Assembly: GCA_963754325.1 (NCBI GenBank)
Contig: CAVWFP010000002.1
Location: 970,521 to 1,034,520, forward strand
Origin: an uncultured Verrucomicrobiae bacterium
GTDB lineage: Bacteria; Verrucomicrobiota; Verrucomicrobiia; Chthoniobacterales; UBA10450
Direction: 5' to 3'
Length of the DNA: 64,000 nt
Position 1 is the stretch's first letter. Each line of letters begins with the position of its first letter. Position numbers and translations under genes: made by a program. Under the pieces are notes generated by a model, which searched no databases, had not been told where the DNA came from, and saw nothing but the letters and a program-made list of their open reading frames with translations. Below are positions 4,760 through 62,741 of the stretch, piece after piece.

Positions 4760-4888
4760 GGCCTAACGAAATGCAACGCCGGACTGGGCAAACCACGGGC
4801 CGGGATCGCCGGATCGATGAACCGCCGAACGCGACAGATCTGTCTGTGAATGTTGCGAGCGACAGTGCTCTGGCCTTTCGCGATTCAA

Positions 4889-5338
4889 TCAACGGAAGCC
4901 GTAAACCAGGGCCCAGTGCGTCCGTTCCTCCGTCGACTCCTCGATGGCCACGATGATAAAATAACTGCCGGTGGCTTTGGGAATGATGTGCGCCGCGGCA
5001 AAGTGTCCTTTCTCCCAGCCGTCCGTCTGTTCCGCCAGTTTCCCTTCGGAATCGTAGATGTGAACGGACACCTTGGCGCGTTCGACCTCTGTCCCCATCC
5101 AAAACCAGTATTCGTTGCCTTTGAAGAGTTGCTGGCGAACGGCCTTCTTCTCCCCTACCCCGAGATCGCCGCCCCAGTAGTCCTCCCGGACCTGGAACCC
5201 TTCCTTCACGTAAGGTTCGGCGGCTTGAAGCGCGAAGGATTGCGCGTCGTCCACTGAGGCGCGGGCCGCGAAAAAAGCCACGCCAAAAGAAGCAACGAGC
5301 AAACTTCGCGCGATGAATAGATGCAAAGAGCGCTTCAT
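4889..5338 (-). CDS. hypothetical secreted protein
   Basis: 149-aa ORF with an N-terminal signal-like segment (MKRSLHLFIARSLLVASFGVAFFAARA). No family recognised. Confidence 0.5.
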   Translation of the reverse strand: MKRSLHLFIARSLLVASFGVAFFAARASVDDAQSFALQAAEPYVKEGFQVREDYWGGDLGVGEKKAVRQQLFKGNEYWFWMGTEVERAKVSVHIYDSEGKLAEQTDGWEKGHFAAAHIIPKATGSYFIIVAIEESTEERTHWALVYGFR

Positions 5339-5348
5339 TTGGGCCCCC

Positions 5349-6152
5349 TTATTCTTTCGTCACGATGGCGTTATCCAGCCGGGTCGTAATGTCGTTGATC
5401 TTCTTGACTGACTCTGGAGAAATTCTCTGGGTCGGAGTGATATCGATGAGCGGCTTCACTTCGACAAGTGCCCCGTGGATCTGTTTAAGTAATTCCAGTT
5501 TAAACTCCGGCATGGCCTTTAATTTGTCCTGGAAATAGGAAAGCAAATCGGGCTGATGAAGAAGTTCGGCGCCGTTCGGGGAATAATTCTTAGTCACTAC
5601 GGCGGTTAACACTTCTGTGCCGCGCAGCCAGCCACCGAGGCTGACGAGTTGCGACAATTGCTGATCGTGCACTTCATTCATGGCCTGCTGAACGCTGTTC
5701 TGCGTTGCGTCAAGTTCGGAGCGAACATTCTCCCACCGACTTTTGTCCGCCGATTCCATGATCGCTTTTGCATGGGAGGTGATGGAATTGCCCACTCCAA
5801 TTGCTGTCGAAAGCTTAAGCACGCGCTGGCCTATGTCTTTCACTGCCGGCGCATCCTTTGCCTGAACCGCGATAAACCCGTCGGCAATGACCGAGCCGAG
5901 CAAAAGGGCAATCCGCGGGCGTTCCGTAAAGTTATTGCCGCGGTCGGCGCGCACATATTCCTTCCAGTTCACGGAACCGAGCTTGTTAAGCGCCCCGAAC
6001 ACTTCGTTCGGCAATGGCACCACCACATCTTCCACCCGGGTGGAGTATTTGGTCACATCGATACTCTTGGGGGCCGTGGCCGCGTGGGCGGTTAATGTCA
6101 TCGCCGCGAGGGCGATACTGCTAAAATTCAGGTATTGAACGAATTGAGTCAT
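5349..6152 (-). CDS. hypothetical secreted, mostly helical protein
   Basis: 267-aa ORF with a signal-like N-terminus (SSIALAAMTLTAHAAT). It lies 10 nt upstream of the previous ORF on the same strand. No family recognised. Confidence 0.5.
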   Translation of the reverse strand: MTQFVQYLNFSSIALAAMTLTAHAATAPKSIDVTKYSTRVEDVVVPLPNEVFGALNKLGSVNWKEYVRADRGNNFTERPRIALLLGSVIADGFIAVQAKDAPAVKDIGQRVLKLSTAIGVGNSITSHAKAIMESADKSRWENVRSELDATQNSVQQAMNEVHDQQLSQLVSLGGWLRGTEVLTAVVTKNYSPNGAELLHQPDLLSYFQDKLKAMPEFKLELLKQIHGALVEVKPLIDITPTQRISPESVKKINDITTRLDNAIVTKE

Positions 6153-6424
6153 CGGAAGCTTCGACTGTTGGTTTGGCGATCCTATTCAGGTTTACTGGCG
6201 GGAACTCTAGGCATTTTTGCTTCAACGTCTAGCAAGTGTCCTGCGCCGGACCGGAGGCGCGGGAGGTTGAGTGGTGACCCAGAGTTTGAGCCCGCCGTCC
6301 AACCGGCGAGAGATGAAGACAGAGTGAGCATGCAGCGCGGGACAAATTCTGAACGTTGGGAAACACGACATTTTGACGTTCCGTAAGTTTCTGGCAACGA
6401 TAGGCTGCGCTACAAGTGCAATTT

Positions 6425-7435: not shown

Positions 7436-7974
7436 AGCAGTCTCCGCAGTCTTCAGCCCGGGCTGTCTTTTTCGATCGCGACGGTACTTTAATGCGCGAT
7501 GCGGATTACTGCGATGATCCCGCCAAGGTGGAAGTCTTTCCCGGTGCGGGCGATGCGCTCCGGCAGTTGAAAGATCGCGGCTTCAAAATCGTCGTGATTA
7601 CCAATCAAAGCGGGATCGGGCGCGGGTATATGACCGAAGAAGATTACCGAGCTGTGGAAAGTGAATTTGAATCGCAGTTAGGCAGCGACGTGATCGAGGC
7701 GACTTACTTTTGTCCGCACTCTCCAGATGAGTCATGCGACTGCCGAAAACCAGAGCCCGGAATGCTTCGACAAGCGGCGGAAGAACATCAAATCGATCTG
7801 ACGAAGTCTTATTTCGTGGGAGACAAGGACAGCGACATCGCGTGCGGCAAGCGCGCCGGTACAAAAACGATCCTTGTCGAGACCGGCTACGGTCGCTCCG
7901 CAGACCATAATTTACCGGAGGCCGTCGCCGCCGACATCAACGCCGCCGTGCAGATCATTCTGGCAAGTTCGTAA
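7432..7974 (+). CDS. gmhB: D-glycero-D-manno-heptose-1,7-bisphosphate phosphatase (HAD superfamily)
   Basis: 180 aa. FFDRDGTL HAD motif I, ITNQSG, and CPHSPDESCDCRKPEPGM (the Zn-binding GmhB signature). TTGA overlap with the hldA stop. Confidence 0.85.
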   Translation: MKQSPQSSARAVFFDRDGTLMRDADYCDDPAKVEVFPGAGDALRQLKDRGFKIVVITNQSGIGRGYMTEEDYRAVESEFESQLGSDVIEATYFCPHSPDESCDCRKPEPGMLRQAAEEHQIDLTKSYFVGDKDSDIACGKRAGTKTILVETGYGRSADHNLPEAVAADINAAVQIILASS

Positions 7975-8045
7975 CCGTCATAGTGGAGATCCGGGACGAC
8001 CCCGTTCCGATCAAATCCCTTCGAGCCGGTGAGCTCGCTCGATGA

Positions 8046-8933
8046 TTGCAGGGAGGAACCCTGGTCGTCCTAAGTTTGCAATTTACAATCGCGCCCGTAG
8101 CGCCCTTTGTGTTCGTAGTGCGAACCAACCCGCCATCGACAATCGGCAATCCGAAATCTGGCAAAGTCCTCGCGGTCATCCCGGCTCGCTACGCTTCCAC
8201 GCGGTTCCCGGGAAAATCGCTCTTCCCGATCGCCGGCGTATCTCTCCTGCGACGCGTCTGGGAACGTTGTCGCAAGGCGCGCACGATCGATCGTTTGGTT
8301 ATCGCCACCGACGATGCCCGCATCTGGCGAGTGGCCGCGCAAATGGGTGCCGACGTTGTCCTGACCTCGAAAGATCATACGAGCGGAACCGATCGCGTCG
8401 CCGAGGTCGCCCGCACGGCGCGGGATTTTGCGTACATTATTAATATCCAAGGCGACGAGCCCTTGATCGACCCGCGGGTCATCGACGCCCTTGTGCGGCT
8501 GCTCAAATCCAAACCCCAAATCGGAATGGTCACCGCGGCACATCCTTTTTCGCGACCGGCCGATGTCTCCTCTCCACACCAGGTCAAGGTGACGATCGAC
8601 AAAACCGGCTTGGCCCTGAATTTCTCCCGGAAGGCGATTCCCGGACGTCCCCTGGCGAAGACCGCTTCCAAGACAAAGGCTGGGAAATCCGTCTTCTTCC
8701 GTCACCAGGGGATTTACGGGTTCCGCCGCAAGACGCTTTTGGATTTCGTGCGCTGGAAACCATCGCCGCGCGAGGAGGTCGAGCGACTCGAGCAATTGCG
8801 GGCTTTAGAAAATGGTGTAACTGTTCATGTGCTCGTCACGAAACAGGGTTCACCTGGCGTAGACACGCCGGAAGACGCAGCCGCGCTCGAGAAAATCATC
8901 AATCGCGCGGAGAAAAAGGGAGTCTCGCGATGA
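8046..8933 (+). CDS. kdsB: 3-deoxy-manno-octulosonate cytidylyltransferase (CMP-KDO synthetase)
   Basis: Contains VIPARYASTRFPGKSL and INIQGDEPLI. The true start is uncertain because the conserved core begins about 40 codons after the TTG at 8046. Confidence 0.8.
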   Translation: MQGGTLVVLSLQFTIAPVAPFVFVVRTNPPSTIGNPKSGKVLAVIPARYASTRFPGKSLFPIAGVSLLRRVWERCRKARTIDRLVIATDDARIWRVAAQMGADVVLTSKDHTSGTDRVAEVARTARDFAYIINIQGDEPLIDPRVIDALVRLLKSKPQIGMVTAAHPFSRPADVSSPHQVKVTIDKTGLALNFSRKAIPGRPLAKTASKTKAGKSVFFRHQGIYGFRRKTLLDFVRWKPSPREEVERLEQLRALENGVTVHVLVTKQGSPGVDTPEDAAALEKIINRAEKKGVSR

Positions 8934-9015
8934 TTTTTCGCTCTTCTGTCGCGGCGATCTTGGAGGGACGAGCTCGTCTCCTCCGCTCTTACAGCCAGAA
9001 TTTGGAGTTCAGTAA

Positions 9016-10617
<1,602 letters not shown>

Positions 10618-10953: not shown

Positions 10954-11415
10954 ATGACCGACGAAGGCGGCGATCCATATCATCTCGAACGATTCGTCAG
11001 CGCTCAACGGGGCTCGTACGAGACCGCCTTGAGGGAGCTGCAGAACGGACAGAAGCGCAGCCACTGGATGTGGTTCGTGTTTCCTCAGGTCGCCGGCCTT
11101 GGGAGCAGTGCGATGGCCGATCGTTATGCCATCAAATCGAGAGCCGAAGCGGGGGCTTACCTGGCGCACCCGGCGCTCGGCGCGCGATTAAATGAATGCG
11201 CGAATGCACTGCTCCAGCTCAAAGGGCGAACGGCCGAGGAAATCATGGGCTATCCGGATGACCTGAAACTTCGGTCGTCAATGACACTCTTCGCGGCAGT
11301 GTCCCCGCCGGATTCGCCGTTTCAGAAGGTGCTCGAAATTTACTTCTCTGGAGTTCCCGACAATCGGACGATGGCCTTCCTGGCGGCGCGTGGCGACACT
11401 GACGCTTCAGATTAG
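10954..11415 (+). CDS. DUF1810-family protein
   Basis: 153 aa. LERFVSAQ...YETALRELQNGQKRSHWMWFVFPQ matches my recollection of DUF1810. Confidence 0.65.
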   Translation: MTDEGGDPYHLERFVSAQRGSYETALRELQNGQKRSHWMWFVFPQVAGLGSSAMADRYAIKSRAEAGAYLAHPALGARLNECANALLQLKGRTAEEIMGYPDDLKLRSSMTLFAAVSPPDSPFQKVLEIYFSGVPDNRTMAFLAARGDTDASD

Positions 11416-13809
11416 ACGTCTCTGCTGCTGGCTGGCGAGCAGCGGAGGCAATTCGACCAAGGCCGGAGATTTCGTGCTCTCAGCATACTTTTCTGCAAGG
11501 GCCTTCAGATCACGCCAGCGCGCGAGATCATGATCTGGCGCAGCGACAATGTGGCGAAGCAGGCTGCGCCACTCCATGAGAGCGCGCTCGATATCGCCAT
11601 GGCGCAAGACTTCGTTAGTCAATTTGTAGCGACTGGCGGGACTGGTGACAAGCTCGCGAACCACTTCCGACGCTCCGGATCCGTATTGAACGGGCACGCC
11701 CATCGAAAGGTACCCGGGAAAATCGAGTCGCTTGTAAACGCGCTGGCAAAGGATGCCCAGTTTTCCGCCAAACGGAGCGTCTTCTCCGGCAAACCGCGGG
11801 CCGGCACGGATATTCGCCAGATCGAACACGAGCGCCTCGAGATCGTAGGTTTCATCTTCCAGGGCGACGGCGATCGCGAGGCCTTCGCCGCCGTGAAAGA
11901 AAGAGAAAATAATGCCGCGTTGTGTCGGAGTTCCGTCCGCTTCGATCAATCCGAGCTGACGCCACGCGTATGCAGGAGAGCCACTGATCGCTACGGTTCG
12001 ATCGTGTTCGAGTTGATCGCAGGTTGCACAAACGGCCGGAATATTTTCTCGCGTTGGCGGCGAGATCAGGGCGTTTCCCGCGGAATCGAGATAGCCGTCG
12101 ATGGGCGCGTTGGAAAAATCGATGCGCAGGGACAGGGTTACGCCGCGCACGATTTCGTCGCAAATGACGCCCGGCCTAACCAGTGAAGACAAGGCCGGAA
12201 GCACTTCCTTCTCGAAGAGAACGCGATTGACGAATTTATGACCGGCAGTCTTGCGCAGCGATTTCGCGATCACGAGATCCCCGTTCTCCGCTAGCGTGGC
12301 CACTGTCATTTCGCGGCCGTAGACATTGAGATCGGCCAGGCGGCAAAGGTTCCCCTGCCCCAATCCATCGAGCATTCGGGGAACAAGAAGTGCGCGCCGC
12401 CACTGATCCTGCTCGCGGATCCATGCTTCTCCCAGGGTCGAGCTGGTAACAGAGGGCTGCGGCTCCCACTTGCCGTGGGAATTCAAAATCTCGACCACTC
12501 CGCGGCGGACAAACCTGGCGCGCTCGTCTGTCGCCCAGAGTCCGCAGGGCCGAGCGCCTGTTTCCAGCGAATGTTCGACCCCTAACGACACGCGATTCGA
12601 GCTGAAGAGAGATTTGACGACTTCAACCGCCGCGGCGAGTGGAAACTCTCCCCGTTTCGCGGCTGCGTTCATCACGCTGATCAGGCTCGGCCAGTCGACT
12701 GGCGCAGCGCGCTTCAAACGAAGCGGCCGCGCGTCACCGAGGCGTGGGAACTCTGACGAATAGAGAACGTACCCGGCATCGTCCAAGCCACGGCGCCCGG
12801 CGCGTCCGAACATTTGCAGAAGCTCATCCGCCTCGACCTGACGCTCGAAATTGTTCGCGTAATATCTGCGGTCGGTCACGAGCACTGAGCGCATCGAGAA
12901 ATTGATTCCTGCAGCCAGGCCCGTCGTGGCAACGACCACGTTCAGTTGTCCGGATTTTGCGAGCGGCTCGATCAGGCCCGCACGCGCGGCATAACTCAAC
13001 CCGCTGTGATGATAGGCCACGCGGTTTCGCAGCAGCTTTGCTAATTGCTTCCCGGCGAGCGCCTCCTGCGCCGGCGTCAGCGAAAGCGGATCGCGAATCG
13101 GGACACCGGACGCAATCGAGCGCGCAATCTCTTCGGCAGCTGCGCGCCGCGGGGCAAAGAGAAGCAGCGGGGTCATCTCCGCGCGAGCCACCCGCCCAAC
13201 GACACGCGCCCAGTAGTTACGGCTTTGCACGAACTGAGAGTCCGACATGCTCTGAAGATCGCGTTCCTCGAGCGGCACCGGCCGTTCCTTGTGTTCGATC
13301 AGAATAGCTTTGCGCCCGATCCGTTCGAGCCAGGCAACGACGTCCCGCGAATTGGCCACGCTGCCGCTGAGCAGAAGCAATTGTGTGTGCCGCGGCGCGA
13401 GCGCAATCGCGAGCTCGTAATGGACGCCACGCATCGGATCGCCCAGCATTTGAAATTCATCGATCACCAGCAGGCACGGACCTTCGCCTCTAAGAAACCG
13501 GCCGCGTTGGGTCTCAAGGGTGGCAACGACGACGCGAGCGCCGAGGTTAACGGCGATGTCGCCGGTGGAGATGCCAACGTCCCATCCGCGGCTGCGCCAT
13601 TCGGCCAGTTTGTCGTTTGCGAGCGCCCGAGTTGGAACGGTGAAGACCGCCTGCTGCTTCAGGTTCGGATAGAGAAGCTCAAATATATATGTCTTGCCGG
13701 AGCCGGTGGGCGCCTGGACGACGACGTCGTTTCCATCTTGTAAGGCACGCAGAGCTTCCTGCTGCCACAAATCGGGAATGGTTAAGTTGACCCTCAGACC
13801 CTCAAGCAC
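11407..13809 (-). CDS. DEAD/DEAH-box superfamily-2 helicase (Ski2/HelY-like) with a long C-terminal extension
   Basis: 800 aa. Motif I APTGSGKTY, motif II DEFQ, SGS, and motif VI-like GRAGRRG. GTG start. Confidence 0.8.
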   Translation of the reverse strand: MLEGLRVNLTIPDLWQQEALRALQDGNDVVVQAPTGSGKTYIFELLYPNLKQQAVFTVPTRALANDKLAEWRSRGWDVGISTGDIAVNLGARVVVATLETQRGRFLRGEGPCLLVIDEFQMLGDPMRGVHYELAIALAPRHTQLLLLSGSVANSRDVVAWLERIGRKAILIEHKERPVPLEERDLQSMSDSQFVQSRNYWARVVGRVARAEMTPLLLFAPRRAAAEEIARSIASGVPIRDPLSLTPAQEALAGKQLAKLLRNRVAYHHSGLSYAARAGLIEPLAKSGQLNVVVATTGLAAGINFSMRSVLVTDRRYYANNFERQVEADELLQMFGRAGRRGLDDAGYVLYSSEFPRLGDARPLRLKRAAPVDWPSLISVMNAAAKRGEFPLAAAVEVVKSLFSSNRVSLGVEHSLETGARPCGLWATDERARFVRRGVVEILNSHGKWEPQPSVTSSTLGEAWIREQDQWRRALLVPRMLDGLGQGNLCRLADLNVYGREMTVATLAENGDLVIAKSLRKTAGHKFVNRVLFEKEVLPALSSLVRPGVICDEIVRGVTLSLRIDFSNAPIDGYLDSAGNALISPPTRENIPAVCATCDQLEHDRTVAISGSPAYAWRQLGLIEADGTPTQRGIIFSFFHGGEGLAIAVALEDETYDLEALVFDLANIRAGPRFAGEDAPFGGKLGILCQRVYKRLDFPGYLSMGVPVQYGSGASEVVRELVTSPASRYKLTNEVLRHGDIERALMEWRSLLRHIVAAPDHDLARWRDLKALAEKYAESTKSPALVELPPLLASQQQRRLI

Positions 13810-14932: not shown

Positions 14933-16056
14933 AGATTGTCTCGCGCGACCCGGACGGCGGCGGCCGCTTCCCTGGCCGTGGCAGCCAGCGCTGTCAGGTG
15001 TCCCATTTTGCGACGCGGCCGTGGTTCCGTTTTTCCGTAGAGATGAAGGTGGACCGCCGGCACCGCGAGCGCCGCCGCCCAGTTCGGTTCACCCTCCTGC
15101 CAGACGTCGCCTAACAAATTTGCCATCGCGGCGGGGCGCAATAAATCGACCGACCCAAGTTTCAGACCGCAGACTGCTCGCACGTGCTGCTCGAACTGGC
15201 TGGTCACGCAACCTTCGATCGACCAATGCCCGGAGTTGTGCGGACGCGGCGCGAGCTCGTTAACGAGCACTTCGCCGGACTGATTGACAAACATCTCCAC
15301 GGCAAGCAGCCCGATCACATCGAGTTTTTCGGCGATGGCGGTTGCGATATCGATGGCTTGTGTTGCGACTGATTCCGAAACACCCGCCGGGACCACGGTC
15401 ACGTCGAGGATGTGATTCCGATGAACATTCTCCGCGATCGGAAAGGTGATGACGTTGCCGCCGGGATCGCGAGCGACAATGACGCTGATTTCCTTTTCGA
15501 AATCGATCGCTCGTTCCAGAACGAGCTCATCGCCCGCGCGAGTCGACCAGACATCGTCCAGCTCGCGCGACGCGATTGTTTGCTGGCCTTTGCCATCGTA
15601 ACCGAAGGCCGCCGTTTTGAGGATGGCGGCGCGACCGATCAATTCCACGGCCGATTCCAGTTCAGCACGGTCTTTGACCGCGTGGAACTGCGGGACAGGA
15701 AAGCCGTTTTCGGCCAGGAAGTTTTTCTCACGCAACCGGTGCTGCGCGATTGCGAGGACGTTCCCGTTAGGCCGCACTTCGCGATGAAAGGCACACCAGC
15801 TGACGGTTTCGGCCGGGATGTTTTCGAATTCAAACGTGATGAGATCGACTTCGCGGGCGAATCGGCGAACGGCATTTTCATCGAGGTAATCGGCCTCGGT
15901 GGCGGCATCGGCGAATTGCGCCGCCGGCCCGTTTCGCTCGGGCGTGTAAACGTGAACCCGGTAGCCCATGCGGCGCGCCGCCATGGCAAACATCCGGCCG
16001 AGCTGCCCGCCGCCCATGACTCCAATCGTGGAACCCGGCAGGTAAACGCGACTCAT
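14914..16056 (-). CDS. purK: N5-carboxyaminoimidazole ribonucleotide synthase
   Basis: 380 aa. ATP-grasp fold, [12 protein letters not shown]-terminus, immediately downstream of purE. Confidence 0.9.
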
Positions 16057-19793: not shown

Positions 19794-20537
<744 letters not shown>

Positions 20538-21805: not shown

Positions 21806-22135
21806 TTCACCGCAGAGAACGCCGAGGGCGCAGAGGAGAGAAACATAAACGGACTTACATCGTTGCCAATCCCTCTCCGAGTACAAGGACGTCGTCTTGG
21901 ACCGTGGATATCGCGCTGATGTGGTCGCCGCGGGGAAAATCTTAGTCGAAGTCAAATCGGTTGAGGCATTGCTCCCGATTCATGAAGCTCAGCTTCTCAG
22001 TTATCACAAGCTGGGTGGGTGGCAGGTCGGCTTGATTATCAATTTCAACGTAACTCGATTGAAACGAGGAATCCGGCGGCGAGTTTTGAATCTGAAAGAA
22101 GAAAACTCGGCGGACTCCGCAATCTCTGCGGTAAA
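21806..22135. repeat. imperfect inverted repeats flanking the GxxExxY gene fragment
   Basis: Left arm TTCACCGCAGAGAACGCCGAG (21806-21826). Right arm CTCGGCGGACTCCGCAATCTCTGCGGTAAA (22106-22135). The core ACCGCAGAGA / TCTCTGCGGT is perfectly complementary. Confidence 0.55.
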
Positions 22136-43059: not shown

Positions 43060-43090
43060 CCCGGACCTCTAGAACTCAGTTTAAAAGCGG

Positions 43091-43538: not shown

Positions 43539-43573
43539 CGTCCGAATCGAACGCGGAATTTTGAATGATGAAG

Positions 43574-48819: not shown

Positions 48820-48943
48820 AGTCGTTAGGGGGGAGATTTGGTGCTCGCGCTACCCAGGAAACTACAGAGGCGCTTGTGCCCAGCGCCTATTTACTTTAGA
48901 CAGGCGTTTGGCACAAACGCCTCTACCCCACCTTCGGTTCCGC

Positions 48944-51045: not shown

Positions 51046-51184
51046 GAACTGGAAATCTCGCCGGGACTCCGCAAGGCTGAAAACGTTGTCGAGGCCTTTA
51101 TGCCAAAGGCCTAGCCAACTAAACGGGTCGTTGACACAACGACCTCGCCAAGATGCGCTGCCTCTACCTTATTGAGGGTCAACG

Positions 51185-53596: not shown

Positions 53597-55282
53597 TCAG
53601 GGAGAAGCGAGCGGCCGCAGACGCCAGAACGTTTGCGGGCTTGCCGCTGTATCGCCTAACGATCTCGTAGCCCATGGAAAACTCTCAACCACGGTGGTTG
53701 AGACCGGATCCCAGTGAGCCAGATCGGTCGATCGCTCCAGGCTGTAGGTGAACCCGAAGAGGCTGCCGTAACTCAAAGTCGCCATTCCGCCGTTCACGCT
53801 GACCACGGAAAACGCTGGCGGGTAATCGCGCTCGGCCAGTTCGTCCGGATCCTCCCGCGCAGGAAGAAGAAACTCGAAGACCTCCGGCAGGCGCACTGAC
53901 CAGGCAGCTTCGTTGTGTTGCTGGCCGCAGCCGGCGACATATTCCACGTCATCGTTCACTGAATAATTCTGCGCCAAATGCGTGTCATACATCGCCAGGC
54001 AGTTATCGAAATCGCTCTGCCCTTCGGCTGTTCCCATGTCCAAATGAACTCGAAGCGGCTTTTTGGTCTCACCGTTGACCTGCGAGACGTAGTTAGGCGA
54101 AATCCACAGTGCCGGCGACATCGCGGCAATTTTGCCGAAAGTCGTAAACTCACGCCCCAGATAAAGCGAAACCAGTCCACCCATGGAGGAACCAATGGTG
54201 ACCGTGTTTTTGGCGTCGTTGAGGGTGCGAAAGTTTGCATCGATGTAAGGCCGCACGTTGTTAATCACGAAACTGGCGTAGGCATCGGCGCGGCCTTGAA
54301 TTCCCTGGTAGGCATCGTTAGGCGGTTGATATTCCGGGATGCGCGCACTGTCGTTGTCGATCCCGACAAGGATTGTCTCACGCATCCTCCCCGCCCCAAT
54401 CTCCTTGGTGGCCGTCGCGTCGGCGCTCCACGAGCCGAAGGGACCGCCGGGATCAAAAACATTCTGCCCATCGTGAAAATACACCACCGGATAGCGCCGA
54501 TTCACGTTCTGGGTGTAACCGCGAGGCAGATAAACGCGGACGGTGCGTCCGGGAATATTTAAGACACTTGAGTCTACGAAGTGGGTCAGGATCGCGGGCG
54601 CGGAAAACGTCGGCGGCGGTTGATAGGCGAAGACGTTTCCGTCTTCGACCTCGAAGTCGTCAATACTCGTCAGGTAATTTCCGCCACCGGGTGGATTATC
54701 GAAGTTTCCGTGACCGTCGCTGAAGACGAACTCGAAATTTTCTCCGGCCTGTCCAACGCCATTGATCTTAAACAGCGATTCGCCGGCCACGCGTCCGGAG
54801 CCGATCTTCGTCATGGTCGCGCCAACGAATGTGCCGCCATTGTTATAAACAAGATCGGCCGAACTCCACGAGCTCAGGTAATAAATGGTCTTACCGTTAT
54901 AAGGCGCGGCCGGTTGCGGAGTGATGGACTGAGAAAGCGTCGAGCCCAGGCTGGTCGCGTTCGCGGAATCGCACCAGCTGCCCTGAGCTGTCGAACGCTT
55001 GATATAGTGATACTGCAACGCCGCTCCCGCCTGGATGGAGATCTGCCCCGTCCAGACGTTGTTGCCTGTGTAGCGAAGCTTAATCGCATGTGTAACATCG
55101 TTGGCACCGAGATCGGGATGGTTGCCGGTGACAAAAACGCTATTGCCGAAGCCAACATCGCTAGTGATGGAGAAATTGACTATTTCCTTGTGCGGACTGC
55201 TGGCATGCGCGAAGCCAGCGGCGCAGAGGAGGAAAACAACGAATCGGGGGAACACGGCCTGATGATAGTCGATCTCTGACAC
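53597..55282 (-). CDS. secreted esterase (esterase D / enterochelin-esterase-like alpha/beta hydrolase) with an N-terminal CBM20-like module and a C-terminal beta module
   Basis: 561 aa with a signal peptide. The N-terminal FGNSVFVTGNHPDLGANDVTHAIKL...WTGQISI resembles starch-binding CBM20. Core motifs are YPVVYFHDGQN and GSSMGG (nucleophile elbow). Confidence 0.65.
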   Translation of the reverse strand: MSEIDYHQAVFPRFVVFLLCAAGFAHASSPHKEIVNFSITSDVGFGNSVFVTGNHPDLGANDVTHAIKLRYTGNNVWTGQISIQAGAALQYHYIKRSTAQGSWCDSANATSLGSTLSQSITPQPAAPYNGKTIYYLSSWSSADLVYNNGGTFVGATMTKIGSGRVAGESLFKINGVGQAGENFEFVFSDGHGNFDNPPGGGNYLTSIDDFEVEDGNVFAYQPPPTFSAPAILTHFVDSSVLNIPGRTVRVYLPRGYTQNVNRRYPVVYFHDGQNVFDPGGPFGSWSADATATKEIGAGRMRETILVGIDNDSARIPEYQPPNDAYQGIQGRADAYASFVINNVRPYIDANFRTLNDAKNTVTIGSSMGGLVSLYLGREFTTFGKIAAMSPALWISPNYVSQVNGETKKPLRVHLDMGTAEGQSDFDNCLAMYDTHLAQNYSVNDDVEYVAGCGQQHNEAAWSVRLPEVFEFLLPAREDPDELAERDYPPAFSVVSVNGGMATLSYGSLFGFTYSLERSTDLAHWDPVSTTVVESFPWATRSLGDTAASPQTFWRLRPLASP

Positions 55283-55308: not shown

Positions 55309-57891
55309 TTACGGGTAGGTGGCGCGGTAGAATCGCCTGGTTAATCCAATGGCGCCGTTGTCGGTGTATTGAAATGTGCCGGTCGAATCAGCCGTGACCG
55401 AAGCGAGAAAGCCGAAAGCCGTCAGTAAATCCGGCGATACCTGCATGGTCACTGTGAGATTCGGTCTCGTCAGGCCGGTGATGACAGCCGGGCCAGTTCC
55501 GGAACGCGTGATGGATGTGATCTGGACCAGGGCCGGATCGAAAACATAACCCTGGGCGACATCGATCAAATTGAACAAGGAGCCCCCGATCCCTCCAACC
55601 GATGGCGAAGTGTTGGCCGGCTGCGTCAATGTCATGGTGCTTGCGGTCACTTCGTGCAGTCTGTTGTCCACCGGATCGGCTTCGCTGACCTGCGAGAGGG
55701 GAACATAAATTGTGATGGTGCCGTTAGGGCCAAGGGTCGACTGGCAATTGGCCGCGGGTAATTGCGAGTTGCCGGGATAAGTCAGCACGCCGCCGCCACC
55801 CACGAGCATGACGGCGTTTTCACCGACGAAACATTGGAGCGCAGCGCCGTTGTTCGACTCGGCATAGACGTGGAAGTTTTTGCCCCCAGTCGGATCGGTC
55901 AGCGACGGGACAAACCATTGCGTGGACCAAACGAGGTCCGTATCCGGATCCTGGGCCAGCGTCGGTGCAAGACTCAAGTTGTTCAGCTGCATGTCGATCT
56001 TGTAGCAGGGCGCTGAGGGTGAGCAGGGGCTCGAGGTGACAAGCGCAACCTGTGATGACAAAATGTCCAGCTGCGGCATGTTTGCGCTGCTGCTGCCGGC
56101 AGCCTCGTATTTTCCGTCGCCGGAAACGTCGGTCACGGTGTTGTAGGGGACAATTCCGGGAACGCTCACCGGCGAAGAAGCTGCCAGCAGCCCGGTGCCC
56201 CCGTTCTGGTGGACGTACATGGCGTGTCCGGCAGCCGAGCCGATGATATTGTTTGAATCAACATAGGCGATGTGAGCTTCGCCCTGAACACCGATGCGTG
56301 TTTGCAGATAATCGCCTAACGAACGACTGGAGAGCTGATTCTGGCCGCCAATCAGGCTTTGGACGGCGCCGCGGTGAACCGGATGCTCGGTCGCGAGGAT
56401 CGGCGCGGTGAAAACAGGACCGTTGGGATCGTGAGCGTTGAGCGATTGCGTCATCCAAACGCTCCAGGTACAGGTGTTGCAATCGTCCGGGCCATTATTT
56501 CCGCCGCTCGGCATATCCGGCGTTCCGTACCAAACAATGTTGACGCGGCCATCGTCGCCCGCATTGATCCAGGCGAAAACATTCTGGTGAAGCGTGCCCA
56601 CAGACGAACCGCTCGTGTCGATGGTCATCGGCGCCGACCACGTATTTCCCTCGTTGGTCGAGTAGGCGAACTTCAACTGCACATCTCCGGAGAGGGCAGA
56701 CCCGTTGGCAGGCGCTTGCTCCCAGACGGCATAAAGGTTCCCGGCCTTATCGATCGCCATGGTCGCAAAATCGCCGCCCGTCTTTTGTTGGGCTCCGAGA
56801 TCAGACACCAGGATATCGGTGCAGTTTAACCCCGTCGGGTCGGCCACATTCGGCGTGGCCACCAGATTGAACGCCACCGGAAAACAGCGACCAATTCGCA
56901 CCTGCTGGAGGTTCGCGGTGTCGTGAATGACATAGATATGCTTTACCGCTGTCGCTAATTGCGTGAAACCTCCCAAGCCGTCCGGCTGTCCGGTTTTCGT
57001 AGCGATCGGGCTGATCTCGTCGTTGCCCATGATGGCTTCGTCGCAACCCCCGACGGCGGTTATGTGATTCGGCGGACCGAAGGCGATTCCGGCCGTGCTC
57101 CCTGGCGCCCCGGTAATTGGCGAGCGATACATGACAAGGACGTTATTCCCCGGAAGCGAAGTTCCCGGACAATTCACACCACCCGGGCCGACTTCATCGT
57201 TCGCCAGATAAAGGGTGCCGCCATTGGTCGGGTCGCCGTCAACCGCATACCACTGGCGATCGACCACGGTGTCGGGAACGCCGCTATTGCTGCAGGTAAA
57301 GGTGGCGCCGAAATCGTCCGATCGCGATGTGCTGAAGTTTAACAGCGTCAGGTCATTGAAATAGAGATGGCCGACGGTATCGATTGCAATTTCGGTGTCA
57401 CCGCCGCCGTGGCAGGTCGTTACTTTTCCTTCGAGCGGGGCCGCCCCAACGACCCATTTGAAAGTTTTGCCGCCATCGAGCGAATGCCAGATCCAGCTCG
57501 TGTCCGCGGAAGCGGTCCCGGGAGCGCTGGTATAAATGCGATTGGGATTAGTCGGATCGATACGGATCGATTCTTCGAAGCCGGTGCCGCCGATTCCACT
57601 GATGACCGGGTGCCCGAAAGTCGGCGCATTAGCCGGCAAGGAAGCCGGCCGGACCGACGGATCCAACGGGGTGCGAGGTCTCGGGATGAAAATGTTGGAT
57701 GGCCTAACGACGACAAGCTTTTCTCGCCCGAGGACCGGGCCGGAAGCGAGCCGTTTGCTCGGAGAAACGCTCACGGCGCCGAGGGCCGTTCCAAGAACGA
57801 TGAGCGAGGCAGCCAGCGCAAAGCGAATTCTGTTTCTCCGACCCTTCCTCGAAATTTTTTCGATCATTCTCCCAGTTCTTTCAAGCCACAA
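55309..57891 (-). CDS. large secreted BNR/Asp-box repeat (sialidase-fold-like) protein
   Basis: 860 aa with an N-terminal anchor or signal. Asp-box motifs SLDGGKTF and STNEGNTWS. The start may be the ATG at 57867. Confidence 0.6.
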   Translation of the reverse strand: MWLERTGRMIEKISRKGRRNRIRFALAASLIVLGTALGAVSVSPSKRLASGPVLGREKLVVVRPSNIFIPRPRTPLDPSVRPASLPANAPTFGHPVISGIGGTGFEESIRIDPTNPNRIYTSAPGTASADTSWIWHSLDGGKTFKWVVGAAPLEGKVTTCHGGGDTEIAIDTVGHLYFNDLTLLNFSTSRSDDFGATFTCSNSGVPDTVVDRQWYAVDGDPTNGGTLYLANDEVGPGGVNCPGTSLPGNNVLVMYRSPITGAPGSTAGIAFGPPNHITAVGGCDEAIMGNDEISPIATKTGQPDGLGGFTQLATAVKHIYVIHDTANLQQVRIGRCFPVAFNLVATPNVADPTGLNCTDILVSDLGAQQKTGGDFATMAIDKAGNLYAVWEQAPANGSALSGDVQLKFAYSTNEGNTWSAPMTIDTSGSSVGTLHQNVFAWINAGDDGRVNIVWYGTPDMPSGGNNGPDDCNTCTWSVWMTQSLNAHDPNGPVFTAPILATEHPVHRGAVQSLIGGQNQLSSRSLGDYLQTRIGVQGEAHIAYVDSNNIIGSAAGHAMYVHQNGGTGLLAASSPVSVPGIVPYNTVTDVSGDGKYEAAGSSSANMPQLDILSSQVALVTSSPCSPSAPCYKIDMQLNNLSLAPTLAQDPDTDLVWSTQWFVPSLTDPTGGKNFHVYAESNNGAALQCFVGENAVMLVGGGGVLTYPGNSQLPAANCQSTLGPNGTITIYVPLSQVSEADPVDNRLHEVTASTMTLTQPANTSPSVGGIGGSLFNLIDVAQGYVFDPALVQITSITRSGTGPAVITGLTRPNLTVTMQVSPDLLTAFGFLASVTADSTGTFQYTDNGAIGLTRRFYRATYP

Positions 57892-58160: not shown

Positions 58161-58616
58161 TCAGTCGCGAGAGGAACCGCAGGCCCGGTAAAGGATGCGA
58201 TGTTCGCGAAAATCCGCCAAAAGCTCCTTGGCCTGCAGAAGAAATTCGCCCCGTCGAAGGCAGGTTTCATCTTCCACATTGAACTTGTTTGTCGAAACCA
58301 GGCGCGGGTGCTTCAGCGGTCCCAGGTGACGGTCCCATTTGTTATGAATGGTTTCGACCACCGAAACCAGGGTGCGCCGGTGAAAGTGATATTCGCGCCG
58401 AATAACCTCGCTGCCGCGTTCAGTCGTCCAGTCGACGGATTGAATATCGTCGCCTCTCAAAAAGACCTTTGTCCCGACGCCGTCGGCGGAAGGTTCATGG
58501 CGCGCTTTTTCCAAACAGTTCAGGCCGCCAACTTCCTGCGACTCCTGCTCCGCTGCGCTCAGCCGCGCGCCGCTCAGAAGGCATCCAATTGCCAGACTCG
58601 CGATGAATCTTTTCAG
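58161..58616 (-). CDS. hypothetical lipoprotein, probable non-canonical CTG start
   Basis: The track gives 58161..58514 (TTG start). The same frame stays open upstream and encodes (L/M)KRFIASLAIGCLLSG..., a signal peptide with lipobox LAIGC. The only start-like codon is a CTG at 58616-58614, which overlaps the gltA stop as CTGA. Confidence 0.45.
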   Translation of the reverse strand: MKRFIASLAIGCLLSGARLSAAEQESQEVGGLNCLEKARHEPSADGVGTKVFLRGDDIQSVDWTTERGSEVIRREYHFHRRTLVSVVETIHNKWDRHLGPLKHPRLVSTNKFNVEDETCLRRGEFLLQAKELLADFREHRILYRACGSSRD

Positions 58617-59770
58617 GGGCGTTGGTCTATAGGGATGACTTTCTTGCCGACTGGCTCGCCAACGTATTCGCTCAGAGGCCGGAACAGGCGGTTGTCCTCC
58701 AATTGCTCAAGAATATGGGCGCACCACCCGGAAGTGCGTGCAATCGCGAAGACCGGCGTAAAAAGATCGGTCGGAATTCCTAACGAGTAATAAACCGTTG
58801 CCGAATAGAAATCGACGTTGGCATTCAGGTTCTTCTTTTCCTTCATGATCTCGGCGATCCGCTCGCTCATCTTGATCCATTTCGGCTCGCCGAGTTTTTC
58901 GCTCAACTTGATCGCCATGTCGCGCAGGTGCGGCGCGCGCGGGTCGAGCGTCCTGTAAACCCGATGCCCGATGCCCATGATTTTCTTTTTCTGCGCCAGC
59001 TGATCATCGATGTAGCGATCGACATTTTCTATATCGCCGATTTTCTCGAGCATGTGAATGACACCTTCATTCGCGCCGCCGTGGAGTGGGCCTTTTAACG
59101 TTCCGATCGCCGAAGTGACCGCTGAGTACATGTCGGTCAAAGTCGAGATAGTCACACGCGCGCTAAAGGTGGATGCGTTTGTGCCGTGATCGGCATGCAA
59201 GACAAACGCCAGATCGAGAGTCTTGGCCGCTTCCGCTGTCGGCTCATGGCCCGACATAAGATAAAGAAAATGCGCCGCTTCGCCCAAATCTTCGCGGATC
59301 GGGGGCAGCGGCAAACTCTTGCGCGCCCGGTGAAAATACGCCGCGATCACGCCGATTTTCGCGGTGATGCTCCGGGCGCGCTGGCGGTTGATCTCAAGAG
59401 TGGCTTCACGATGGATGTCAGGATCGTAGAGCCCAAGCATCGAGACCGCCGTGCGCATTACATCCATGGGCAGGGCGTTCTTCGGGGCAGTTTTCAAAAA
59501 CTCGACAACTGCGTCCGGCAAACGCCGCAGAGATCGCAAAGTATTCGCGCAGGAAGTCAGCTCCTCGCGATTCGGCAGCCGGTTATTCCAAAGCAGAAAA
59601 ACCACTTCTTCATAACTGACCCGGCCGGCGAGCTCGTTGATATTGTAGCCGGCGTAGATGAGCTGGCCTTTGTCGCCAATGACGTCGCTCAACCGCGTGC
59701 TGTTCGCGACGATGCCTTCGAGTCCGCGTGAAACCATGGTTTGGGGTTGCCGCTGCTGCGGCCAAGCCAC
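58613..59770 (-). CDS. gltA: citrate synthase
   Basis: 385 aa. GPLHGGANE and MGIGHRVY motifs. An alternative ATG is at 59737. Confidence 0.9.
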   Translation of the reverse strand: MAWPQQRQPQTMVSRGLEGIVANSTRLSDVIGDKGQLIYAGYNINELAGRVSYEEVVFLLWNNRLPNREELTSCANTLRSLRRLPDAVVEFLKTAPKNALPMDVMRTAVSMLGLYDPDIHREATLEINRQRARSITAKIGVIAAYFHRARKSLPLPPIREDLGEAAHFLYLMSGHEPTAEAAKTLDLAFVLHADHGTNASTFSARVTISTLTDMYSAVTSAIGTLKGPLHGGANEGVIHMLEKIGDIENVDRYIDDQLAQKKKIMGIGHRVYRTLDPRAPHLRDMAIKLSEKLGEPKWIKMSERIAEIMKEKKNLNANVDFYSATVYYSLGIPTDLFTPVFAIARTSGWCAHILEQLEDNRLFRPLSEYVGEPVGKKVIPIDQRP

Positions 59771-60012: not shown

Positions 60013-60891
60013 TCAATTCCGCCGCATTCGGGCGATCAACGTGTCTGCCATGGTCGCGGGTGTGTCCGCCACCGCGATACCGGCCGCTTTGAGGGCGTCG
60101 ATTTTCCCCGCGGCCGTCCCCTTCCCTCCGGAAACGATTGCGCCCGCATGCCCCATTCGGCGTCCAGGCGGCGCCGTCACTCCCGCGATAAATGCGGCCA
60201 CCGGTTTACGGCAATTGTCCTTGATCCATGCAGCCGCTTCTTCTTCGGCGGTGCCGCCGATCTCGCCGATGAGAATCATGGAATCGGTCTCGGGATCGTC
60301 ATTAAACAGCTTCACGGCATCGAGATGAGACATTCCGTTGATGGGATCGCCGCCAATGCCGATGCAGGTCGATTGCCCGAGGCCGCGCGACGTTAATTGC
60401 CAGACAGCTTCGTAGGTCAAAGTGCCGGACCGCGAAATCACTCCGACCTTGCCCGGCTTATGGATATATCCCGGCATGATTCCAATCTTGCAGGCGCCGG
60501 GGGTGATGATTCCCGGGCAGTTAGGGCCGATGAGGCGCGACGACTTGCCTTTCATAAGCGCTTTAACGCGCATCATGTCCATCACCGGGATCCCTTCGGT
60601 GATGCAAATGACCAGCTCAACGCCGGCATCGACCGCCTCGAGAATGGAATCCGCCGCGCCGGCAGCGGGAACAAAGATGACCGAAACGTTGCAACCGGTT
60701 TCCTTTCGCGCCTCCCAAACCGTGTCAAAGACCGGGACAGTGTCATCAAACTTCAGGCCGCCTTTCCCCGGGGTCACTCCGGCGACAACGTTCGTTCCGT
60801 AGGCCATGCATTGACGCGCGTGAAAACCGCCGGCGCTGCCGGTAATACCTTGAACGACGAGGCGGGTGTTTTTATCAACGAGGACGGACAT
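60013..60891 (-). CDS. sucD: succinyl-CoA ligase subunit alpha
   Basis: 292 aa. [18 protein letters not shown], and GHAGAI with the phosphohistidine. Confidence 0.95.
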
Positions 60892-60983
60892 GAGGATAGC
60901 TACGGTTGAAACGTTGAAAGCATGAAGGGTTGCAAAGGACCTCGGTTATTTATCTTCATCTAGCTCTTCAACTGTTCAATCCT

Positions 60984-61337
60984 TCAACTCTTTCTTTGGT
61001 GGATCACCAGCTTGTTTCCGGAAGGATCGCGAAACTGGGCCATGAAACAAACTGGCGTTTCAGTCTTGTCCATATCGAACGCCACGCCTTTGTCTTTCAA
61101 ACGTTGCAGTTCGGCCTCGATATCCTCAACTTCGAACGCCACGGTCGTTCCGTCGCGCGAAGGCTTCCAGGCTGGATGACAACCCACTCCGATGGTTGTG
61201 CCGCCGACTTCGTACTCCACCCATGCACCCTCCATGGCACTTGAAGATGGCTTTAAACCAAGGGTTTCCTGATAGAATTTGCGGGATTCTTCCGCATCGG
61301 CGACGGCAATTGCGACGAAAGCAACTTCTTTGATCAT
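60984..61337 (-). CDS. VOC/glyoxalase-family protein
   Basis: 117 aa. Paired beta-alpha-beta-beta-beta pattern, with FYQETLGL and DPSGNKLVI typical of VOC proteins. Confidence 0.65.
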   Translation of the reverse strand: MIKEVAFVAIAVADAEESRKFYQETLGLKPSSSAMEGAWVEYEVGGTTIGVGCHPAWKPSRDGTTVAFEVEDIEAELQRLKDKGVAFDMDKTETPVCFMAQFRDPSGNKLVIHQRKS

Positions 61338-61367
61338 AATCGTAACTTGTTAGGGGGGTTCAACTCC

Positions 61368-62741
61368 TCAACTCCTACTTCCACCTTTCGCGGACTCGTG
61401 TTCCTTGAACCAGTCGGTCAGGATCCGCAGCACCGCGGGGTCGAACGGCTGTTCTTTGCTGTGAAAAGCGTCTTCCATACTTCCGTAATGTTGAAACGTG
61501 TGTCCGGTTGACGGCAGCTCCTTGAAGTGAGCCAGCCCGGCCCTGTTCATGTTAACATAACCAGCCATAAGTTCGCAGTCTTCGCGACTCATGATCCAGT
61601 CGTATTGGCCGTGCAGAACCAGCGTCGGCACTTTCACCCGTGACCATGCTGACGCCAGATTCAATTTTTGAAGTTGCTCGTAGAAAGAGAGCGGCCGGCC
61701 ATAAAGATGACTTCGATCCGGTCCCTCCGGCCAGATTTCCCCCAGGGTTGACCGTTCGCGCACGATGTCTTCCACGGTTCGACCTTTGATGAGCCACTCC
61801 GGGTAAAGAGTTTCAGCGCCTTTCATTCGGTCGGAAATATCTCCGGGTGACTTCCCCAAAAGCGTGAAGCGACGCCGCTCGATCTCAAACATATGCTCGA
61901 GCCACGTCTTCACCCAGCCGCCTACGGACACGTAACCACGGATTCGCGCTTCTTCGGCTTCAGTTTCCGGCACCAGCGGCGCAATTCCGCCGCCGTTGCT
62001 GATTCCGAGCACATAAACTCGGTCCGGATCGATGAAATCGTAATTGCGAACGGCGCGGAAAGCGGCCCGATAACCAGCCAGCTCGGTTTCGAAATCGGTC
62101 TCAGCGCAATTCCCCTGGCTATCCCCCACTCCGGGTTTGTCGACCCGCATGAGAGCGAATCCTCCCATTTCGGCGAGTCCGCGAAAGACGAGTGACGTTG
62201 AGTCGGTCGCTCCATCCGGTGCTTCAACGGTGTCGGCGCTGAGCCAGCCGACCACCAGAATCACCGGCACTTTGCCCTCAACATTGTGCGGCTTCGTTAG
62301 GATCGTTCGCAGTTTTTGCCCTTTTGCCCCGACGACGCTGTCGTAGATGACGTCCGCATTCGCGTATTTCTCGCGCGGCATCTCCGGCAGAATCCCGGTG
62401 AGCAAGCGCGACTGCCCGCCGCGAGAAATGTCGACGGTCACGCGTTGACCGGCGCGAAGGCCTCTGCCGATCTCGGCCAGGTCGGCTCGACTGGCGGGAA
62501 GATGTTTCTCTATATAGACAAGGTCGTCTCCGACCTCGACGTCGAGCGCTGCTCCCAGACTGCCGGGCGCGACGCTCGAGACAATCGATGTGCGCGGCAC
62601 GGGACCGGGCTTGGTCGGGTCGATATCGAGCCCGAGGAAGCCTCTTCGCGGAAGATCCTCTTCCGCAAATCCCAAATCCCAGGCTCCAAATCCCAGGGAA
62701 ATTCCAATAACCAAATAGAGAAGTCGCCTACGCATTTCCAT
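61368..62741 (-). CDS. alpha/beta hydrolase with an N-terminal PDZ-like domain
   Basis: 457 aa. GFLGLDI...GDDLVYI... is PDZ-like, followed by the nucleophile elbow GISNGG and a C-terminal ...GHTF. The first roughly 25 codons are encoded by the inverted-repeat arm. Confidence 0.6.
   Translation of the reverse strand: MEMRRRLLYLVIGISLGFGAWDLGFAEEDLPRRGFLGLDIDPTKPGPVPRTSIVSSVAPGSLGAALDVEVGDDLVYIEKHLPASRADLAEIGRGLRAGQRVTVDISRGGQSRLLTGILPEMPREKYANADVIYDSVVGAKGQKLRTILTKPHNVEGKVPVILVVGWLSADTVEAPDGATDSTSLVFRGLAEMGGFALMRVDKPGVGDSQGNCAETDFETELAGYRAAFRAVRNYDFIDPDRVYVLGISNGGGIAPLVPETEAEEARIRGYVSVGGWVKTWLEHMFEIERRRFTLLGKSPGDISDRMKGAETLYPEWLIKGRTVEDIVRERSTLGEIWPEGPDRSHLYGRPLSFYEQLQKLNLASAWSRVKVPTLVLHGQYDWIMSREDCELMAGYVNMNRAGLAHFKELPSTGHTFQHYGSMEDAFHSKEQPFDPAVLRILTDWFKEHESAKGGSRS
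62666..62691. repeat. left arm of a 26-bp perfect inverted repeat
   Basis: CAAATCCCAAATCCCAGGCTCCAAAT. Its exact reverse complement lies at 63149-63174. Confidence 0.9.

Follow-up and report, generated by a model that had tools for sequence, protein, structure and literature searches.

The octamer TCGTTAGG is a lineage-specific word found in one clade of uncultured Chthoniobacterales from soil. We analyzed it in a 64,000-nucleotide stretch of an uncultured Verrucomicrobiae genome (assembly GCA_963754325.1, contig CAVWFP010000002.1, positions 970,521 to 1,034,520), referred to here as the window and numbered from its first letter. A both-strand search of the window returns 21 exact copies, 10 on the plus strand and 11 on the minus strand; the word is not palindromic, its reverse complement being CCTAACGA. 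Genes and spacers both carry it, in either orientation, as a feature imposed at the DNA level, and it is made by swapping common codons for rare ones (TTA, AGG, CTA and CCT), sometimes by an amino-acid change. Once present, it stays at orthologous positions across ~26% nucleotide divergence. These patterns show a strong directional force that is genome-wide, specific to the lineage and independent of orientation, and whose target is the DNA sequence itself; it works against codon preference and sometimes against protein sequence, and the sites persist once made. An earlier examination of the same DNA from its letters alone (the sequence-only reading) had listed the 21 copies, and all of its coordinates and orientations, including the 11:10 balance, were exact on re-search.

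Abundance and placement in the window

Markov models of orders 0–4 predict 1.0–2.9 copies of TCGTTAGG in the window, and dinucleotide-preserving shuffles (n = 100) gave 1.17 on average (standard deviation 1.05, maximum 4), in line with the one to three copies that the sequence-only reading had estimated mentally; the ratio of observed to expected counts is thus not near 1 at orders 0–4. Orders 5 and 6 predict 14–20 copies, close to the observed count because the 6- and 7-mer sub-words on which they rest are mostly copies of TCGTTAGG themselves, and the maximal-order expectation, whose sub-words are almost entirely such copies, was discarded as uninformative. Shuffling synonymous codons while keeping every protein (n = 300) gave 1.11 ± 1.06 copies (maximum 4) vs. 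the 18 counted within genes. Over-representation is therefore about 15–20-fold under both the Markov models (orders 0–4) and the codon-aware null, and the copies lie in unrelated genes, in four frames and in spacers, which bears out the earlier proposal of a word selected or driven at the DNA level rather than a peptide motif. Relative to a Markov-3 model, TCGTTAGG is the most over-represented 8-mer of the window (P ~2e-17), followed by the overlapping words CGTTAGGC, CTAACGAA and CGCCTAAC and by the variant TTGTTAGG.

Between 17 and 18 of the 21 copies are inside genes and three are in spacers. One sense frame of the word is closed by TAG and one antisense frame by TAA; the remaining four strand/frame combinations are all used: TCG TTA GG (Ser-Leu-Gly), nTC GTT AGG (x-Val-Arg), CCT AAC GA (Pro-Asn-Asp/Glu) and C CTA ACG A (Leu-Thr). 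The sequence-only reading had described genic copies in all three reading frames; the correct wording is all four stop-free strand/frame combinations. The sites are as follows, where labels beginning with L denote loci of relatives described in the next section.

4762-4769, minus: intergenic; ends 2 nt upstream of the ATG of the phoH-like gene 3785-4759(-) (TCGTTAGGccATG)
12581-12588, minus: Hel308-like helicase gene 11407-13809(-); sense, TCG TTA GG, Ser-Leu-Gly
17687-17694, minus: queG 17175-18269(+); antisense, C CTA ACG A, Leu-Thr; one mismatch in L001 and L013
20244-20251, minus: ABC ATPase gene 19794-20537(+); antisense, CCT AAC GA, Pro-Asn-Glu; kept in L001
22931-22938, minus: MacB/FtsX permease gene 22019-23380(+); Pro-Asn-Asp
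23723-23730, plus: response-regulator-domain gene 23495-25690(+); Ser-Leu-Gly
25133-25140, minus: the same response-regulator-domain gene 23495-25690(+); antisense, Pro-Asn-Glu
31981-31988, plus: Ser-Leu-Gly in open reading frame (ORF) 30949-32121(+); overlaps the over-extended 5' end of the htrA-like ORF 31788-33854
33889-33896, plus: PDZ-protein gene 33856-35409(+); Ser-Leu-Gly
37619-37626, minus: membrane-protein gene 36621-38441(+); antisense, Leu-Thr
38662-38669, plus: Ser-Leu-Gly frame of ORF 38287-39039(+), whose gene call is uncertain because it lacks a family match
48822-48829, plus: intergenic, between the divergent genes 48343-48819(-) and rluA-like 48908-49663(+)
50459-50466, plus: gene 50437-51045(+); GTC GTT AGG, Val-Val-Arg
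51039-51046, plus: across the end of gene 50437-51045(+); as reported earlier, TAG at 51043-51045 is its stop codon
53655-53662, minus: esterase/CBM20 gene 53597-55282(-); Ser-Leu-Gly; kept in L163
54315-54322, plus: esterase/CBM20 gene 53597-55282(-); antisense, Pro-Asn-Asp; kept in L162 and L163
56315-56322, minus: 860-aa protein gene 55309-57891(-); Ser-Leu-Gly; kept in L082, L094, L162 and L163
57703-57710, minus: 860-aa protein gene 55309-57891(-); Val-Val-Arg; kept in L162 and L163
58133-58140, plus: intergenic, between the start of the 860-aa protein gene and the end of gltA
58779-58786, minus: citrate synthase gene 58613-59770(-); Ser-Leu-Gly; kept in L163
62294-62301, plus: hydrolase gene 61368-62741(-); antisense, Leu-Thr

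The codons that these frames force are rare in the window, as the sequence-only reading had recognized for each context: TTA and CTA make up 4.2% and 2.7% of Leu codons, AGG 6% of Arg codons and CCT 12% of Pro codons. TCG-TTA-GG spells 6 of the 17–18 Ser-Leu-Gly tripeptides in the window, vs. 1.25% expected from codon usage. We defined occupancy as the share of peptide positions able to hold TCGTTAGG through synonymous codons that actually carry it, and compared the window with L094.

Ser-Leu-Gly: window 35%, L094 4/4
Pro-Asn-Asp/Glu: window 50%, L094 6/6
[FILV]-Val-Arg: window 12%, L094 3/6
x-Leu-Thr-x: window 15%, L094 3/8

None of 193 compatible positions is occupied in G+C-richer outgroup loci, and Pro-Asn-Asp/Glu tripeptides are 2–5 times commoner in word-rich loci than in outgroups. 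Density is 0.46 per kb in non-coding and 0.35 per kb in coding DNA (with only 13 non-coding copies and crude gene calls), and the fold enrichment is similar in the two. The host genes are unrelated housekeeping genes: nuoB, phoH, kdsB, pyrG, a Hel308-like helicase, sua5, purK, aroK and queG, as well as macAB, purB, msbA, htrA, a Pup ligase gene, accBC, thiE, rluA, gltA and sucCD.

The 15 bases on either side of the copies are unrelated to one another, in agreement with the earlier statement that no dispersed or longer conserved repeat is involved. Orientation is balanced with respect to transcription, and the gaps between copies are indistinguishable from random placement (coefficient of variation 0.91 vs. 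0.93 simulated). Regular spacing was accordingly rejected, as was a word-free island at the 10-kb gap between 38.7 and 48.8 kb (P = 0.47 against random placement). This gap, the window's only 10-kb stretch without an exact copy, holds a run of ORFs without any Pfam match (38287-41259 and 42717-44062) that flank a tRNA-Arg (42536-42610), and G+C is lowest here (0.554); the run could be a foreign island, though the gap itself is not statistically significant. Two weaker over-represented words also occur in the window: CGGTCACG/CGTGACCG, with 14 genic copies vs. 4.1 under the synonymous shuffle, and the palindrome AGCGCGCT, at 10 positions vs. 2.2. Both are dispersed (e.g., 9363, 12873, 15396, 16872, 28063, 29815) and could represent additional but weaker words of this type, or else codon-pair effects.

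In 210 kb of pooled word-rich sequence there are 77 copies of TCGTTAGG vs. 4.8 expected, which allowed us to describe the word's anatomy. A C follows 11 of the 21 copies in the window, where the sequence-only reading had noted about half, and 46 of the 77 pooled copies; a T precedes 37 of the 77. The +1 column is biased and the -1 column weakly so, with all other flanking columns near background. Enriched one-mismatch variants in the pooled sequence differ at positions 1, 2, 7 and 8 (e.g., TTGTTAGG, TGGTTAGG, CCGTTAGG, TCGTTAGT), while those differing at positions 3–6 are scarce, which is only suggestive because the expectation for such neighbors is inflated by the word itself. The biased flanks and the outer-position variants together lead to the consensus T-[C>T>G]-GTTAGG-C, in which the GTTA core is strict. 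There is a dialect-like difference between genomes: the window has TYGTTAGG, and L094 favors TTCGTTAG[G/T].

The variant TTGTTAGG occurs 11 times in the window vs. 0.56 expected (three of the 11 in a tandem repeat), and seven times inside genes vs. 0.5 under the codon-aware null. Only two of its sites can be aligned to relatives, which have TTGTTCGG at both; the GTTAGG core was therefore newly made in the window lineage. The change in pyrG replaced the preferred Pro codon CCG with the rare CCT. Individual variant sites, and one site in pyrG where the word is missing, are:

1724-1731, minus: TTGTTAGG
3945-3952, plus: TTGTTAGG; relatives carry TTGTTCGG
10552-10559, minus: TTGTTAGG in pyrG; CCT AAC AA in the window vs. 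CCG AAC AA in relatives
15110-15117, minus: TTGTTAGG
30309-30316, plus: TTGTTAGG
32613-32620, minus: TTGTTAGG
61347-61354, plus: TTGTTAGG
62967-62974, minus: TTGTTAGG
9052-9059, plus: 'empty' site, pyrG codons 13–15 (Ser-Leu-Gly); TCT CTC GG in the window, TCG TTA GG in six relatives

The tandem repeat (45172-45454, between a pfkB-family kinase gene and thiE) comprises 3.8 copies of a 74-bp unit at 98% identity and has no Rfam match. Each unit contains a G+C-rich hairpin (CCCGCCGCG ACTTAG CGCGGCGGG), and the variant word CCTAACAA lies at the unit junction.

Distribution and conservation among relatives

Relatives were sampled as loci of ~20 kb, compared with 64 kb of genome for the window. The window's PyrG (9016-10617) is 82–86% identical to proteins of metagenome-assembled genomes (MAGs) labelled Verrucomicrobiae or Chthoniobacterales, and 66–76% identical to those of further Verrucomicrobia MAGs, several of them labelled Chthoniobacter or Chthoniobacteraceae. 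The 860-aa protein encoded at 55309-57891(-) has hundreds of homologs in public metagenome and genome collections, the few named sources being Chthoniobacterales MAGs, and it is 100% identical to a protein on a public contig. A 5.5-kb Logan contig (L161, run ERR11523676) carries its gene and reproduces the same six copies of TCGTTAGG.

The enrichment in related genomes that the sequence-only reading had proposed to look for was found, and it is specific to one clade, across which TCGTTAGG is enriched 50–100-fold (0.19–0.85 per kb). As an octamer, it is over-represented about 36–50-fold in L094. Densities per kb are:

Window: 0.33
Close relatives (97-kb and 375-kb sets): 0.19–0.20
L094 (18 copies in 21.4 kb) and L096 (6 in 7 kb): about 0.85
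Outgroup loci (1.65 Mb): 0.002–0.006

When loci are ranked by similarity of the 860-aa protein, all those at ≥67% identity belong to the word-bearing clade, and sister clades at ≤60% identity lack TCGTTAGG. Base composition is not the cause of the word, because these word-less sister loci include some with G+C of 0.55–0.59.

Sites are conserved well beyond background. Taking all alignable pairs, which are partly non-independent, 32 of 55 site-pairs are conserved vs. 8.3 expected. The closest relatives found, L163 and L162, have 74% nucleotide identity to the window and keep 5/5 and 3/7 of its aligned sites, respectively, vs. ~10% conservation of background 8-mers. An invariant 10-residue peptide of PyrG is encoded with ...TCG TTA GGC... 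(TCGTTAGGC) in six relatives, in which neighboring synonymous sites are scrambled. The window is the only alignable genome without this copy; three synonymous differences fall within 5 nt (TCT CTC GG) and the flanks are conserved. At 56315, word-bearing lineages encode Ser-Leu-Gly (TCG TTA GG) and the others Ala-Leu-Gly with common codons; an amino-acid change therefore accompanied creation of the word. Neutrality of orientation, too, extends to relatives: over ~90 sites in all loci, the summed majority and minority orientations number 54:35. Among the checks suggested by the sequence-only reading, those of strand skew and spacing gave no polarity and random-like spacing in the window and these loci.

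Some relatives have a second, unrelated word, AAGATCGACA, or (A)AGATCGAC(A), which reaches 1.9 per kb. It was found in L002, L013, L083, L085, L086, L092, L095 and L105 (for example, L085:1102-17546 and L002:111-6907), with counts such as 14 in 7.3 kb, 13 in 13.9 kb and 15 in 17.6 kb. The pooled total is 99 copies vs. 12.5 expected, with an A before 76 of them and after 78. The second word also lacks palindromic symmetry and is dispersed and orientation-neutral (log-likelihood prefers p = 0.5 over p = 0.75 by 8.8 units), with unrelated flanks, and mostly uses the frames AAG-ATC-GAC and GTC-GAT-CTT. Against the codon-aware null it scores 15 vs. 2.5, 13 vs. 1.6 and 11 vs. 2.1, and L083 and L085 share all eight counted sites, vs. 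a 45% background. In the window it is at background level (9 copies; 8 vs. 4.5 ± 1.9 under the codon-aware null). The two words vary semi-independently across the clade: L096, L002 and L013 have both, and the pyrG copy of TCGTTAGG is maintained even in lineages rich in AAGATCGACA.

Other top-ranking words in relatives were rejected as instances of the same phenomenon. Those of L003, L016 and L114 are tandem repeats rather than dispersed words; in L114, a distant relative, a 126-bp repeat of at least 15 units inside an ORF (7919-10068) gave the false top word GGGATGCT. The top word of L006, TCGTTCAT, forms close intergenic inverted pairs and is probably an operator. In this locus (PyrG 76% identical), the TCGTTCAT/ATGAACGA pairs at 616/624, 13636/13644 and 14539/14547 are mostly intergenic, resemble operators for a dimeric regulator, and have TCGTT in common with the window word. 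CTGCTCGA, in G+C-rich Chthoniobacter, is weakly enriched and confined to two or three frames.

Candidate origins of the word

The sequence-only reading had shortlisted an uptake signal, a HIP1-like word and the site of a DNA-binding or DNA-modifying protein; this shortlist is still right, and none of the three is proven here. We lean, tentatively, toward TCGTTAGG being a 'self' word that spreads by DNA-level drive, as do the uptake signal sequences (USS) of Pasteurellaceae and the DNA uptake sequences (DUS) of Neisseriaceae. A lineage-specific protein would read the word on double-stranded DNA through strong contacts to GTTA and weaker ones to the flanks, over a footprint of ~9 bp, and would bias which alleles fix. 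The word would accumulate by directional drive at each site, not through the benefit of a given site to its gene: cells would preferentially take up, and then recombine, word-bearing fragments, so that word-bearing alleles would replace word-less ones wherever the protein tolerates the change. AAGATCGACA in sister lineages might then reflect a second or switched receptor specificity. Only preferential uptake and recombination of word-bearing DNA have been demonstrated experimentally to yield such words (PMC1939737, PMC3630211), and USS and DUS are the only hyper-abundant, non-palindromic, orientation-neutral 9–12-mers that have been explained experimentally (PMC3630211, PMC1939737, bioRxiv 10.1101/2025.10.24.684340). 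TCGTTAGG is like them in being a non-palindromic member of this size class with a strict short core and graded flanks, in the thousands of copies implied per genome (0.2–0.85 per kb) with both orientations equally common, in its presence inside genes in tolerated frames, and in its lineage specificity, dialect-like variants and enriched one-mismatch forms. It differs in its host phylum, Verrucomicrobiota, and in its unrelated sequence.

Several observations weigh against an uptake signal. No competence genes are among the genes identified in the 64-kb window. About half of known DUS and USS copies lie in terminators, often as inverted pairs (bioRxiv 10.1101/2025.10.24.684340), whereas a search for close inverted pairs found 0/115 copies of TCGTTAGG within 60 nt of another, 17–18 of the 21 window copies are genic, and non-coding DNA is not clearly richer in the word (0.46 vs. 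0.35 per kb). A further departure from USS and DUS is the second word that co-exists in some genomes; two unrelated words in L002, L013 and L096, together with the retained pyrG copy, fit several independent readers better than one receptor. Finally, if a single site per fragment suffices for uptake, there is no obvious reason to expect the near-saturation of compatible positions seen in L094. The lack of a terminator or inverted-pair link, the two co-existing words and this near-saturation keep a HIP1-like origin close. Just past the right end of the window by synteny, a gene for a 132-aa prepilin-type protein (with the GFxxxE N-methylation motif), a hypothetical gene and a gene for a TadA-like deaminase adjoin sucC (L162:3045-4558). 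The prepilin-type protein has weak matches to GspG, ComGC and 'Verru_Chthon cassette protein D', so the lineage encodes pilin-like proteins, but nothing ties this one to DNA uptake; as a generic prepilin and a TadA-like protein, the pair was not accepted as evidence of competence.

A HIP1-like origin, which we consider possible but less probable than an uptake signal, would involve an orphan or accessory methyltransferase that recognizes the core, with methylation-linked, sequence-specific mismatch correction (Elhai's ratchet) and/or selection on methylated sites making and keeping the word; gain and loss of such methyltransferases would explain the different dominant words of sister lineages. 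The likeness to HIP1 (GCGATCGC) and the alternate HIPs of cyanobacteria is extensive. These too are octamer-scale words enriched at least 15-fold in all usable frames and in spacers, and the 16–19-fold enrichment in the window is inside the 16–317-fold range reported for HIP1. Orthologous sites of HIP1 are likewise conserved above control 8-mers (PMC5861425), deviations are concentrated at the outer positions (PMC4390886), and two words can occur in one genome or replace each other between related lineages (PMC5861425, PMC4390886). The absence of a tie to terminators or inverted pairs points the same way, the filling of nearly all compatible positions fits local conversion acting on each site independently, and both words contain CpG, the second also GATC. 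Yet TCGTTAGG is neither palindromic nor G+C-rich and its host is not cyanobacterial; to our knowledge every described HIP is a palindrome, which neither TCGTTAGG nor AAGATCGACA is, and we know of no enzyme that corrects mismatches toward an asymmetric 8–9-bp word. No methyltransferase or Vsr-like gene is among the genes identified in the 64-kb window. Moreover, if C2 were 5-methylated and repaired back, TTGTTAGG would be the expected deamination product, yet it is enriched rather than depleted in the window genome; where TTGTTAGG can be aligned, at two sites, its precursor was TTGTTCGG and not TCGTTAGG. Even for HIP1 the ratchet is hypothetical; recent evidence connects HIP1 with natural transformation (bioRxiv 10.1101/2024.09.10.611283).

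The word might instead mark selected sites of an abundant lineage-specific DNA-binding protein, nucleoid-associated or chromosome-organizing, kept for their collective effect on chromosome structure, a function that Xu et al. proposed for HIP1 (PMC5861425). Positional conservation over ~26% divergence, neutral orientation and a pattern resembling a footprint (graded flanks around a strict 4-bp core, 9–10 bp in all) are in its favor, but we regard it as improbable: spacing is random-like in stretches of 13–64 kb, the filling of 35–100% of compatible codon contexts looks like per-site drive and not like a required number or spacing, close relatives differ 10-fold in word density, and a second unrelated word appears and disappears among lineages. 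We also know of no bacterial nucleoid protein that has written its site into genes at such a level. A Chi-like recombination hotspot, or a polar octamer like the FtsK-orienting polar sequences (KOPS) or architecture-imparting sequences (AIMS), would share with TCGTTAGG its length, its lack of symmetry and chromosome-wide over-representation; the word is also G+T-rich and occurs about once per 3 kb, much as Chi does in Escherichia coli. Chi, KOPS and AIMS are, however, strongly co-oriented with replication and enriched only a few-fold, whereas TCGTTAGG is enriched 15–50-fold, much more strongly than is known for Chi, and shows no polarity: orientation is 10:11 in the window, log-likelihood prefers p = 0.5 over p = 0.75 by 7.7 units (~2000-fold), a polarity of 0.9 is excluded, and across their syntenic pyrG regions, the window and L001 carry the word in opposite orientations. 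The absence of strand polarity thus rules out a Chi- or KOPS-type motif, and we attach next to no weight to this class.

Least probable of all, to the point of being negligible, is a by-product with no DNA-level cause, such as codon or dicodon usage, a peptide recurring in paralogs, a dispersed repeat, or a sequencing or assembly artifact. It is true that eight copies encode Ser-Leu-Gly and that the source is apparently a long-read metagenome assembly. But the synonymous shuffle leaves 1.1 copies vs. 18, the copies use four frames, both strands and spacers, and host genes and flanks are unrelated. Because the same sites appear in the independent Logan assembly L161, and the word in many metagenome contigs and MAGs of other projects, an artifact of Nanopore basecalling was rejected. 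Repetitive extragenic palindromes (REP) and miniature inverted-repeat transposable elements (MITE) likewise have many dispersed copies, but those of TCGTTAGG share only 8–9 bp, with no conserved flank, hairpin or intergenic restriction, and none has a neighbor within 60 nt; a repeat element or hairpin was therefore dismissed. An RNA motif was also dismissed, the word lying in both orientations relative to transcription and having no Rfam match. Rfam and tRNA scans of the window found only the tRNA-Arg, so no RNA family explains it.

Novelty and significance

Hyper-abundance is rare among short words, and just two kinds have been studied in depth: USS/DUS, of known function in two proteobacterial families, and HIP1 of cyanobacteria, whose function is still debated after 30 years. 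Our literature search found no mention of TCGTTAGG, or of any hyper-abundant word in Verrucomicrobia, the only matches being primer and telomere papers, and a 2025 survey still lists uptake sequences for Neisseriaceae and Pasteurellaceae only. What is new here is a hyper-abundant DNA-level word in a new phylum, the asymmetry of the words, and a natural two-word contrast among sister lineages.

Our confidence is evenly divided over a broader statement, namely that globally common uncultured soil Verrucomicrobia run an undescribed genome-writing system, in which at least two asymmetric 9–10-bp words (TCGTTAGGC and AAGATCGACA) are driven into nearly every compatible codon context and each is switched on or off by sub-lineage. 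Either this would be the first sequence-specific DNA-uptake system beyond Proteobacteria, or it would be a novel mechanism of word-specific repair or gene conversion, equivalent to a non-palindromic HIP1. Since sister lineages have the first word only, are rich in the second, or have neither, phylogenetic profiling for the word-reading protein is feasible. If the words mark 'self' DNA, they could aid contig binning, the detection of foreign islands in MAGs, and the design of DNA for genetic access to this group. Identifying their origin would put to the test the idea that a single process underlies both HIP-type and uptake-type words, and could reveal whether uncultured bacteria abundant in soil favor their own kind when they exchange DNA.

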